Of a stretch of 48,989 nucleotides of DNA, positions 44,195 through 46,669 are shown piece by piece (position 1 is the stretch's first letter; each line of letters starts with the position of its first letter). Below the pieces are notes generated by a model. That model had not been told where the DNA came from. It saw only the letters and a program-made list of their open reading frames with translations, and made no database searches. The stretch is taken from IMG/VR virus record IMGVR_UViG_2541047945_000011; one strand, 5' to 3'. The translations under genes and the position numbers were made by a program. This DNA is from a virus. Lineage: Duplodnaviria; Heunggongvirae; Uroviricota; Caudoviricetes.

Positions 44195-46669
44195 ATGAGT
44201 AAAATCTTTATTTGCGCTGCTATTCCTGACGAACAGGCCATAAAAGAAGATAGCGCTGTTGCGGTGGCCACTGCCATTGAAGCCGGTGATGAACGTCGCG
44301 CCCGCGCAAAATTTCACTGGCAATTCCTGGAACATTATCCGGCTGCTCAGGACTGCGCTTATAAATTTCTTGTTTGCGAGGATAAACCCGGCATACCCCG
44401 CCCTGCCCTCGATTCCTGGGATGCTGAATATATGCAGGAAAACCGCTGGGATGAGGAATCCGCTTCCTTTATTCCGGTCGAACCAGAATCCGATCCGATG
44501 AACGTCAATTTTGACAAGCTGTCCCTTGAAGTACAGAACGCGGTCCTGGTTAAGTTCGGTACATGTGAAAACATCACCGTTGATATGGCGATTGACGCGC
44601 AGGAATTACTGCAGGAAGACGTTGCTACCTTTGACGGGCATATCGTTGAAGCACTGATGAAAACGCCTGAAATTAACGCTATGTATCCGGAACGCAAACT
44701 GTTCGCTATCGGATGGGTTAAACACAAATGTAATCCGGGTGCCAAATGGCCAGAAATTCAGGCTGAATTACGTAACTGGAAAAAACGGCAGGACGCAGAG
44801 CGCAAAGAGACTGGAAAATACACGTCTGTTGTTGATCTCGCCCGCGCCAGAGTCAATCAACAGCACACTGAAAACTCAGCAGGAAAAATCAACCCAGTCA
44901 CTGCCGCCATTTGTCGCGAATACAAGCAGACATGGAAAACGCTGGATGAAGAACTGGCCTACGCTCTCTGGCCTGGCGATATTGATACCGGAAACATTGA
45001 CGGCAGCATCCATCGCCGGGCAAAAAATGAAGTTATCGACAAAGATCGCGAAGACTGGAAGCGCATTTCCGCATCAATGCGCAAACAACCCGATGCCGTT
45101 CGCTACGACCGTCAGACTATTTTTGGCCTTGTCCGTGAGCGTCCGATCGACATTCACAAAGATCCCGTAGCACTGAACAAATACATCACTGAATACCTGA
45201 CTACCAAGGGCGTGTTTGAAGATGACGAAGGAACAAATCAGGGCACAGCTGGTACTCTCCCGTCACCAGTACCAGAAACTGATGCAGTGGAAACGGCAAT
45301 GCCGGACAACGAAAAAACCGAATGCGAAGTGGAAGACGAACCATCTGTAGAGCGTGAGGGACCGTTCTACTTCCTTTTCACCGATAAGGACGGCGAAAAA
45401 TACGGTCGCGCAAACAAACTTTCTGGTCTGGAAAAAGCACTGGCCCTGGGAGCTACGGAAATCACAAAAGAGGAATACTTCGCACGTAAAAACGGCACGT
45501 ACTCAGGTTCACAACAAAATACTGGTGCATCTGACACGATCGCACAACCAGAGCCGGTAAAAGTTACCGCTGACGAAGTAAACAAAATTATGCAGGCAGC
45601 CAATATCAGCCAGCCTGACGCCAATAAGTTGCTTGCTGTATCACGTGGTGAATTTGTTGCAGGGATTAGCGACCCGAATGATCCGAAATGGGTGAAGGGG
45701 ATTGAAACCCGCGATTCAGTGAATCAGAACCAGCAAGAAACGGAACAGAACGGCCAGAAAGCGGAACAAAACAGCCCAAATGCGTTACAAAACGAGCCAG
45801 AAACGAAACATCCTGAACCAGTGGCGCAACAGGAAGTGGAAAAAGTCTGCACCGCCTGCGGTCAGACCGGCGGCGGCAACTACCCTGATTGTGGCGCGGT
45901 GATGGGCGACGCAACATACCAGGAAACATTCGATGAAGAGTATCAGGTTGAAGTTCAGGAAGATGATCCGGAGGAAATGGAAGGCGCTGAACATCCACAC
46001 AAGGAGAACACTGGCGGCAATCAGCATCACGATAGCGATAATGAAACTGGCGAGACGGCAGATCACTCAATTAAGGTGAACGGTCATCAAGAAATCACAT
46101 CCACCAGCAGGACGTGTGACCATCTAATGATCGACCTTGAAACCATGGGAAAAAATCCTGATGCCCCGATCATCTCAATAGGTGCAATATTTTTCGATCC
46201 GCAAACCGGAGATATGGGACCGGAATTTAGTAAGACTATCGATCTGGAAACTGCTGGCGGGGTCATTGATCGGGACACCATTAAATGGTGGCTTAAGCAA
46301 TCACGCGAAGCGCAATCTGCCATTATGACCGATGAAATCCCGTTAGATGATGCACTGTTACAATTGCGGGAATTTATCGACGAAAACTCCGGTGAATTTT
46401 TTGTTCAGGTCTGGGGAAATGGAGCCAACTTCGACAACACGATTTTGCGCCGTTCATACGAACGGCAGGGGATCCCCTGCCCGTGGCGTTACTACAACGA
46501 TCGCGATGTACGCACAATCGTTGAGCTGGGGAAAGCCATAGACTTCGATGCCAGAACGGCTATTCCATTCGAAGGTGAGCGCCATAATGCACTTGATGAC
46601 GCTCGTTACCAGGCAAAATACGTTTCAGCTATCTGGCAAAAACTGATCCCGAGTCAGGCTGATTTTTAA
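44195..46669 (+). CDS. Large early-operon protein with C-terminal DEDDh (DnaQ-like) 3'-5' exonuclease domain
   Basis: 824 aa; C-terminal motifs LMIDLETMG (Exo I), VWGNGANFDNTIL (Exo II), ERHNALDDARYQA (Exo III); acidic, Gln-rich central linker. Confidence 0.7.
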   Translation: MSKIFICAAIPDEQAIKEDSAVAVATAIEAGDERRARAKFHWQFLEHYPAAQDCAYKFLVCEDKPGIPRPALDSWDAEYMQENRWDEESASFIPVEPESDPMNVNFDKLSLEVQNAVLVKFGTCENITVDMAIDAQELLQEDVATFDGHIVEALMKTPEINAMYPERKLFAIGWVKHKCNPGAKWPEIQAELRNWKKRQDAERKETGKYTSVVDLARARVNQQHTENSAGKINPVTAAICREYKQTWKTLDEELAYALWPGDIDTGNIDGSIHRRAKNEVIDKDREDWKRISASMRKQPDAVRYDRQTIFGLVRERPIDIHKDPVALNKYITEYLTTKGVFEDDEGTNQGTAGTLPSPVPETDAVETAMPDNEKTECEVEDEPSVEREGPFYFLFTDKDGEKYGRANKLSGLEKALALGATEITKEEYFARKNGTYSGSQQNTGASDTIAQPEPVKVTADEVNKIMQAANISQPDANKLLAVSRGEFVAGISDPNDPKWVKGIETRDSVNQNQQETEQNGQKAEQNSPNALQNEPETKHPEPVAQQEVEKVCTACGQTGGGNYPDCGAVMGDATYQETFDEEYQVEVQEDDPEEMEGAEHPHKENTGGNQHHDSDNETGETADHSIKVNGHQEITSTSRTCDHLMIDLETMGKNPDAPIISIGAIFFDPQTGDMGPEFSKTIDLETAGGVIDRDTIKWWLKQSREAQSAIMTDEIPLDDALLQLREFIDENSGEFFVQVWGNGANFDNTILRRSYERQGIPCPWRYYNDRDVRTIVELGKAIDFDARTAIPFEGERHNALDDARYQAKYVSAIWQKLIPSQADF

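Follow-up and report, generated by a model that had tools for sequence, protein, structure and literature searches.

The window analysed here, a stretch of 48,989 nucleotides (IMG/VR virus record IMGVR_UViG_2541047945_000011, Caudoviricetes), is a lambda-like prophage at tRNA-Ser(CGA), beside mtfA. This work concerns one of its genes, an open reading frame (ORF) with an ATG start at 44195..46669 on the plus strand, where the domains and flanking genes described below also lie. It encodes a full-length YdfE-type exonuclease of 824 amino acids (aa). The gene has been catalogued before, and Pfam and PHROGs include its domains, making the bare observation an ordinary one: PHROG 2082, 'exonuclease', spans the 824-aa protein end to end, and a 100% identical gene in NZ_CP091756.1 (WP_001555072.1) is labelled 'exonuclease'. 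What is new is the confirmation of full-length ydfE, the recognition of a chimera between a RecE scaffold and a DexA head, and a three-head grammar that includes a mislabelled Rad52-like fusion.

The C-terminal exonuclease domain

Both profile matching and alignment to DexA place the C-terminal domain (aa 643-814, 46121..46636) in the DexA/Rv2179c family of DEDDh (DnaQ-like) 3'-5' exonucleases. PF16473, the Rv2179c-like 3'-5' exoribonuclease domain, matches it over practically the whole profile (positions 2-177 of 177) with 227.1 bits against a cut-off of 27 and E=1.6e-67, far beyond chance; the generic RNase_T model scored slightly under its own threshold in the Pfam scan. Three motifs can be read in the protein, D647-L-E649, N742-G-A-N-F-D747 and H797-N-A-L-D-D802-A. 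In a MAFFT alignment of four sequences (the 824-aa protein, T4-type DexA and two stand-alone paralogues from E. coli phages), D647, E649, D747, H797 and D802 align with DexA D7, E9, D119, H186 and D191, and all five are invariant. They constitute the four acidic metal ligands and the general-base histidine of a DEDDh enzyme (DxE in Exo I, D in Exo II and H-x4-D in Exo III). On the evidence of sequence, we demonstrate that the C-terminal domain contains a complete DEDDh catalytic centre of the DexA family, while exonuclease activity of this domain and DNA as its substrate are predicted. The initial annotation of this stretch had described an 824-aa early protein with the DnaQ-like motifs D-x-E, N-F-D and H-x-A-x-x-D-A at its C-terminus, and had proposed a profile search as a check. 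The ORF has exactly the boundaries it gave, all three motifs were located as it described, and the full-length PF16473 match together with the DexA alignment supplies the profile support. Searching PDB sequences with the whole protein returned matches only to 8KEL, which is T4 DexA, and 8KEN, which by residue count of its alignment is the S87A/D90A mutant (the crystal structures are described in the source paper).

Domain anatomy of the non-catalytic region

The first 450 residues were modelled by AlphaFold2 on a 54-sequence alignment (mean pLDDT 77, pTM 0.33), and because of the low pTM the relative positions of the domains in this model are undefined. The N-terminal head (aa 1-205, 44195..44809) comprises an alpha/beta domain A (aa 1-100) and a helical domain B (aa 105-205); it corresponds to Pfam YdfE_N (PF27430) and YdfE_C (PF27432), assigned via precomputed hits on 98-100% identical proteins, and is the portion that survives as YdfE in K-12. 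A disordered linker (aa 206-244, 44810..44926; pLDDT 35-53) leads to helical domain C (aa 245-343, 44927..45223; pLDDT 74-90), the module most widely common with RecE-type proteins, which BLASTP aligns to RecE from residue 278 and which phmmer finds in almost all family members of any N- or C-terminal type. Beyond an acidic disordered linker (aa 344-388, 45224..45358; pLDDT 26-49; 14 D/E in aa 361-400) lies a mini-domain of beta-hairpins and helices (aa 389-435, 45359..45499; GPFYF...GRANKL...EITKEEY; pLDDT 77-85). This is the most conserved non-catalytic piece, with 17 nearly invariant residues over 54 homologues; it is missing from Rac RecE and found in DEDDh, PD-(D/E)XK and Rad52-like forms alike.

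The remainder is common to RecE. A central segment (aa 450-530, 45542..45784; DANKLLAVSRGEFVAGISDPNDPKWVKGI...) has ~80% identity to RecE 454-505 and is followed by a zinc-ribbon-like motif, C552-x2-C555-x7-Y563-x2-C566 (45848..45892), which aligns to RecE CNACGQTGGDNCPDCG, and by an acidic linker (aa 567-640, 45893..46114) aligned to RecE 537-591. At the third position of the motif, RecE and most relatives have Cys and the window allele has Tyr563 (25 clusters Tyr, 35 Cys), and zinc binding may have been lost or be dispensable. Residues 561-600 include 14 D/E but no K/R, and aa 505-545 are Q/N-rich; the acidic and Gln-rich stretches fall on segments of low model confidence or relaxed selection. 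The N-terminal ~450 residues and an acidic Gln-rich linker had been described as unrecognised, a statement that holds only in part: the acidic and Gln-rich stretches are real, but homology to YdfE_N/YdfE_C and to RecE exists.

Pairwise Nei–Gojobori estimates against mEp460, Evi and HannyBb gave dN/dS values of 0.04-0.20 across domains A, B and C, the mini-domain and the DEDDh domain (domain C, 0.10-0.15; mini-domain, 0.04-0.05 despite dS of ~1; DEDDh domain, 0.14-0.20) and of 0.4-1.2 in the linkers (0.44-0.67 at aa 206-244, 0.58-1.2 at aa 344-388 and 0.5-0.73 at aa 567-640). The folded domains are under purifying selection, and the linkers are relaxed, evolving almost neutrally. Moreover, dS differs ~10- to 30-fold between neighbouring segments, being ~1 at aa 101-205 and 389-435 and 0.03-0.3 at their neighbours. 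These jumps within one gene indicate that recombination has occurred repeatedly inside it, with joints at the borders of domains.

A RecE-related family with interchangeable ends

When compared with Rac RecE (866 aa) by BLASTP, only aa 262-626 align, to RecE 278-591 (E=4e-61); the alignment is weak initially and then reaches ~80% identity over aa 475-626, a part that includes the CxxC-x7-CxxC motif and the acidic tract. The RecE equivalog NF007259 matches partially (aa 448-626), at 275.8 bits against a cut-off of 1269, which falls short of membership, and in the Pfam scan neither the N-terminal Exonuc_VIII (PF06630) nor the C-terminal PD-(D/E)XK domain (PF12684) of Rac RecE was found in the window protein. 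Judged by its sequence, the 824-aa protein is a mosaic of a RecE scaffold and a DexA head, and no RecE. A RecE orthologue with a degenerate nuclease was also considered and was rejected, as the fold of the C-terminal domain is another one and fully intact.

An exhaustive phmmer search with aa 1-450 retrieved only 193 clusters (50% identity) among 1.84 billion proteins, and architectures were assigned by mapping our own module queries onto the long representatives of these clusters. Every combination of N- and C-terminal heads occurs among them. The YdfE head is joined to DEDDh (P0121, P0062, P0122) or to PD-(D/E)XK (P0129, P0171, P0207, P0269), and so is the RecE head (DEDDh in P0140, P0224, P0236, P0253 and P0261; PD-(D/E)XK in RecE itself, P0199, P0234 and P0260), while 29 proteins, mostly with a YdfE head and in a few cases with a RecE head, have in common a third tail of ~290 aa. 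This tail had no Pfam match at E<=0.001, and a PDB search with a profile of the nuclease-less relatives gave no match; we concluded that it is a Rad52/Sak-type single-strand annealing domain, its other high-Z structural matches being helical repeats that fit its C-terminal helices. The proteins concerned come from Salmonella, Enterobacter, Klebsiella, Citrobacter, Kosakonia and E. albertii, and carry the name 'exodeoxyribonuclease VIII' despite having no nuclease domain.

Gene neighbours vary with the C-terminal type. Third-tail genes are flanked by a Gam-like gene (weak PF06064) and a Sipho_Gp157 gene, with xis-int downstream. In Rac and HK225, recT comes after the PD-(D/E)XK form, and the record of Salmonella phage FSL SP-016 lists RecT beside RecE. 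For DEDDh forms the very next gene is xis or int, as seen in the window, mEp460, Evi, 640R1 and HannyBb. The 813-aa protein of vB_EcoS-640R1 is particularly instructive: it is ~99% identical to aa 455-824 of the window protein but has a RecE-type N-terminus (59% to RecE 50-591), which puts a mosaic joint at ~aa 455, and its gene context, dicB-ydfD-X-xis-int, is that of the window. We thus demonstrate that heads have been exchanged combinatorially on one RecE-related, selectively maintained scaffold.

Operon setting and the K-12 remnant

The operon region is headed by a gene for a DicA-like helix-turn-helix (HTH) repressor (40999..41406; Pfam HTH_3 and synteny with K-12 dicA). A DUF1391 (YdfA-like) gene, assigned by profile matches, lies between it and the DicF small RNA (42621..42672; Rfam RF00039, 71.5 bits), and downstream are a Rha/Ash regulator ORF (42861-43715; profile matches), dicB (43726-43914; Pfam DicB, E=9.5e-37) and a ydfD-like DUF1482 gene (43911-44099; Pfam E=2.8e-15), the last directly upstream of the exonuclease gene. 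Directly downstream of the latter are xis (DUF4224, 46728-46931) and a tyrosine integrase gene (341 aa, 46931-47956), both assigned by Pfam and PHROG.

In K-12-type genomes the same order is found: dicA, ydfABC, dicB, ydfD, a 256-codon 'exonuclease' pseudogene, an IS2 remnant and intQ. The pseudogene, which is ydfE, shares 87% identity with aa 1-256 of the window protein. This identity and the dicB-ydfD synteny establish the window gene as full-length ydfE, the counterpart of the truncated gene in the K-12 Qin prophage, as the initial annotation had suggested. In K-12, ydfA-E, dicF and dicB form one DicA-repressed polycistronic operon analogous to that of lambda PL, and the only characterized products of the dicBF operon are DicF, DicB and YdfD, according to a 2023 study (PMC10448788). 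The proposed location in the position of the lambda recombination genes was likewise borne out, the gene being the last large one of a PL-like operon before xis-int. It is most simply regarded as an early-lytic gene in the slot of lambda exo/bet/gam and Rac recET. A promoter and terminator scan revealed no sigma-70-like site directly upstream of the gene and fewer promoter-like sites than in shuffled sequence; a separate lysogenic promoter, which we had considered, was dropped as none was found directly upstream in that scan.

The classical partners of a phage recombinase were also searched for. With tblastn, no homologue of RecT, the Rad52-like tail, the RecE nuclease, Gam-like protein or Gp157 was found in the window, and the PGAP names in the identical prophage include no annealase or Gam (Redbeta, Erf and Sak4 being judged by PGAP names only). 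According to PGAP, that prophage carries RusA and a DUF968 protein.

Several further features of the locus were observed. The Rha/Ash ORF overlaps same-strand Rfam matches to isrK (67.7 bits) and the C4 antisense RNA (81.9 bits), at 42912-42988 and 43013-43100, an overlap that represents a P1/P7-type c4/antirepressor control module within a DicA/DicC (Qin-like) immunity region. An inverted repeat of 9 bp without mismatches, GCCGCTAAC-N8-GTTAGCGGC (46685-46710), begins 16 nt past the exonuclease stop and precedes xis; it has no T-run and is therefore not a canonical intrinsic terminator. The integrase ORF stops 25 nt before the end of the int feature that PGAP calls 'frameshifted' in NZ_CP091756.1, and the prophage may be defective in excision. 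In the same prophage of NZ_CP091756.1 (features at 17605-17854 and 18769-19104 of the retrieved stretch), tRNA-Ile and tRNA-Arg genes follow a Q-like antiterminator gene, iraM (an anti-adapter), hokD and rem are also present, and a SASA-family carbohydrate esterase gene occupies a moron slot of the late region.

Distribution of the gene

By megablast, 4800 of 5426 complete E. coli genomes contain a match, and at least 80% of the gene is found in 3511 of them (~two-thirds of the total), at a median of two places per genome and with the labels 'exonuclease' or '3'-5' exonuclease'. Records of PPompW and Stx2a-converting phages contain the gene too, as do mEp460, Evi, Tritos, HannyBb and PhiR42_1, and phage records name it 'exonuclease' or 'exodeoxyribonuclease VIII'. 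It has been retained in plaque-forming or sequenced lambdoid phages. Such prevalence could in principle reflect recent horizontal spread alone, with the ORF a decaying and non-functional mosaic passenger. The truncation or insertion sequence (IS) disruption of the gene in K-12 and other strains, the missing third Cys of the zinc-ribbon-like motif in the window allele and the almost neutral evolution of the linkers would fit this idea. We nevertheless consider it extremely improbable, since the ORF is intact, each folded domain has a dN/dS of 0.04-0.20 although dS is up to ~1, and the gene is kept in isolated phages and, over at least 80% of its length, in those 3511 complete genomes.

Relatives of the catalytic domain

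Homologues of aa 636-824 were found by tblastn in 1290 phage records. Stand-alone paralogues of ~190 aa, with 55-58% identity, occur in the E. coli temperate phages LLS (3992-4564) and PhiR46_1 (3962-4561); many siphophage exonucleases are 30-45% identical to this region and T-even dexA products ~28%. Of note, the LLS paralogue lies directly upstream of xis-int, so that the location has been conserved although the scaffold is absent.

The best-matching Pfam family takes its name from the exoribonuclease Rv2179c, and RefSeq calls some homologues '3'-5' exoribonuclease (domain-containing protein)', so that the substrate might also be RNA. The protein could then act on RNA 3' ends, or on short 3'-OH oligonucleotides or single-stranded DNA generated by host immunity, in RNA turnover or anti-defence. 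The operon does also yield the regulatory RNAs DicF, isrK and C4, and counter-defence functions are common among early phage genes. However, the only solved relative found by sequence is the DNA exonuclease DexA (the structure of Rv2179c was not retrieved in the PDB sequence search at E<=1), the other effectors of the scaffold, RecE nuclease and Rad52-like annealase, are DNA-recombination proteins, and no anti-defence family was matched in PADLOC. Furthermore, a DEDDh exonuclease requires a free 3'-OH, which cyclic nucleotide signals do not have. We consider a role of this kind quite unlikely.

T4 DexA has been described as a 3'-5' DNA exonuclease in scavenging and intron homing, and its stand-alone E. 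coli homologue EcD ('HREX', HAK9828821.1) is reported to digest T4 DNA and to protect against T4 even at leaky expression (PMC12153337). It is conceivable that the window protein is an HREX/EcD-like nuclease for defence or exclusion, or a DexA-like scavenger, which degrades foreign DNA (e.g. hydroxymethylcytosine (hmC)-modified T-even DNA) or host DNA, and either protects the lysogen or induced cell or supplies nucleotides, while the scaffold only regulates or localizes it. Membership of its catalytic domain in the DexA family, the precedent of T4 protection by EcD and the existence of stand-alone paralogues in other E. coli temperate phages speak for this possibility. In addition, Escherichia accounts for 38% of bacterial DexA homologues (PMC12153337), in keeping with the prevalence of the gene, the neighbouring DicB is reported in the title of PMC6832061 to protect against phage infection, and dicBp fires spontaneously in ~1% of cells (PMC10448788).

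Several observations argue against it. The gene resides in an early-lytic operon that is under repression, and the scan detected no separate promoter for it. In the four-sequence alignment, DexA D90, a tetramer residue that is Ala in EcD, corresponds to Asp719 in the window protein, and the EcD-type loss is not seen; DexA W152, proposed for hmC recognition, aligns with Tyr766, also aromatic, and D169 with Phe784, which is situated between Asp783 and Asp785. On this alignment of four sequences, the EcD-linked residues appear to be unmatched. The termini of EcD encoded by its cloning primers mark it as a different, stand-alone protein; an exact search of genome contigs for the 23-nt EcD reverse primer gave no match. 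PADLOC returned only a weak, generic CRISPR-associated DEDDh model (E=1.4e-5), and we did not accept this match as membership of a defence system. Finally, a defence or scavenging role leaves unexplained the purifying selection on a 640-aa scaffold common to recombination proteins. On balance we regard this explanation as unlikely.

A proposed 3'-5' DNA exonuclease on a recombination-type scaffold

We tentatively favour, with somewhat less than even confidence, the view that the gene encodes a 3'-5' DNA exonuclease which is brought to its target by a recombination-type scaffold during lytic growth. Among the roles initially suggested, namely recombination, anti-defence and degradation of nucleic-acid signals, a DNA-end or recombination-linked role is favoured because the scaffold is joined in relatives to a RecE nuclease or to a Rad52-like annealase, and because the nearest solved catalytic relative is the DNA exonuclease DexA; the other two roles found no support among these results.

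We propose that the 824-aa protein may be a multi-domain early phage protein arranged as 'beads on a string'. Its C-terminal domain would work as a two-metal DEDDh 3'-5' exonuclease on DNA, while the upstream 640 aa, with the YdfE-type head, the RecE-shared helical domain, the mini-domain and the central segment with its zinc-ribbon-like motif, would serve as the scaffold. Transcription would start from a repressor-controlled PL-like (dicBp-type) promoter upon prophage induction or phage infection. The scaffold would then bring the effector to a common target, be it DNA ends, replication or recombination intermediates or a host protein located there, and the protein would trim 3'-OH ends, 3' tails and flaps of DNA in lytic development, without a phage annealase partner. 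T4 DexA, with its part in double-strand-break repair and intron homing, could be a precedent for such 3' trimming. Candidate outcomes would be to promote or edit recombination, to protect or process replicating phage DNA, or to degrade other DNA.

It should be noted that several points weigh against this proposal. Targeting of the scaffold to DNA ends is deduced from the associated effectors, and PDB and structural searches with the scaffold domains yielded no informative structural relatives. Single-strand-annealing recombination requires the polarity opposite to 3'-5', and as tblastn of the window and the PGAP annotation of the identical prophage reveal no homologue of an annealase, Gam, RecT or the RecE nuclease, a classical recombinase role is unsupported. 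An exonuclease of 3'-5' polarity without an annealase cannot run a Red/RecET-type reaction, and therefore trimming or editing of 3' ends, or an unrecognised role, may apply. Since Rv2179c, the protein on which the Pfam family was founded, has been described as an exoribonuclease, an RNA substrate is possible. Our literature search found no functional study of the 824-aa protein or of YdfE, and a 2023 review calls the non-catalytic region of RecE 'of unknown function' (PMC11611040). Roles outside both our proposal and the alternatives considered here appear rather unlikely, yet deserve some weight.

The family as a whole allows a broader speculation, unlikely as we still consider it to be: the YdfE/RecE-type region may be an exchangeable delivery platform which places any one of three effectors, a 5'-3' nuclease, a 3'-5' nuclease or a Rad52-like annealase, on the same host or DNA target. 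If true, the DEDDh version would represent an annealase-independent phage function editing 3' DNA ends. It might influence how the RecA/RecBCD-dependent pathways of the host handle phage or host DNA; alternatively, by removing 3' tails, it might avoid triggering recombination, SOS or abortive-infection sensing. RecE is a workhorse of recombineering, and yet its N-terminal two-thirds are still unexplained; the target of the platform would explain that region. Independently of this speculation, the finding of one scaffold with three alternative effectors offers a concrete handle on both ydfE and the RecE N-terminus, and predicts a grammar of partners: RecT with the RecE head, Gam and Gp157 with the annealase head, and nothing with the DEDDh head.

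Apart from mechanism, the gene merits attention because some two-thirds of complete E. coli genomes contain it (at least 80% of its length), frequently more than once, and because it occurs in Stx-converting and other lambdoid phages, while our literature search found no function published for it. Two annotation errors also emerge. The label 'exodeoxyribonuclease VIII' is wrong for the catalytic part of the DEDDh forms to which it is attached, and the same label is placed on the nuclease-less Rad52-like fusions in prophages of Salmonella, Enterobacter and Klebsiella. We believe that these fusions could be candidate new single-protein annealases for recombineering.

Comparison with known systems

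Rv2179c of Mycobacterium tuberculosis belongs to the same Pfam family, PF16473, but is a stand-alone bacterial protein described by Pfam as a 3'-5' exoribonuclease. T4 DexA is also phage-encoded, of the DEDDh family and ~30% identical over the domain with its catalytic residues aligned; it differs in being a stand-alone protein of 227 aa from a virulent phage, with extra loops and no scaffold. EcD, likewise an E. coli-borne DexA-family exonuclease, is the sole E. coli member with published activity. By its cloning primers it starts with MIDTET and ends with TIPETYD (the comparison is by primers and reported residues only), whereas the LLS and PhiR46_1 paralogues do not begin with MIDTET, and it is reported as a defence protein, in contrast to a window gene that belongs to a repressed lytic operon.

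YdfE of K-12 occupies the orthologous locus, dicB-ydfD-ydfE, but is a remnant cut by IS2 after codon 256, in which everything from domain C onwards (mini-domain, RecE-shared segment and nuclease) is missing. Lambda Red (Exo/Beta/Gam) and the two-component phage recombinases have the operon position in common with the window gene, and relatives of its scaffold belong to such systems. However, the window protein has another fold and the opposite predicted exonuclease polarity, and its prophage shows no annealase or Gam by tblastn or PGAP names; with a DEDDh fold that predicts 3'-5' polarity and no annealase partner, it falls outside the Red/RecET type.

Rac RecE differs in having a PD-(D/E)XK 5'-3' nuclease and a PF06630 head instead of the DEDDh 3'-5' domain and YdfE head of the window protein, and recT is adjacent to it in Rac, whereas xis directly follows the window gene. 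Both are nonetheless encoded by the large last gene of an early-left operon ahead of xis-int, and both are of similar length, with a long non-catalytic region whose homologous middle carries the motif and the acidic linker. For RecE, the full-length protein has been reported to boost linear–linear recombination (PMC11611040).

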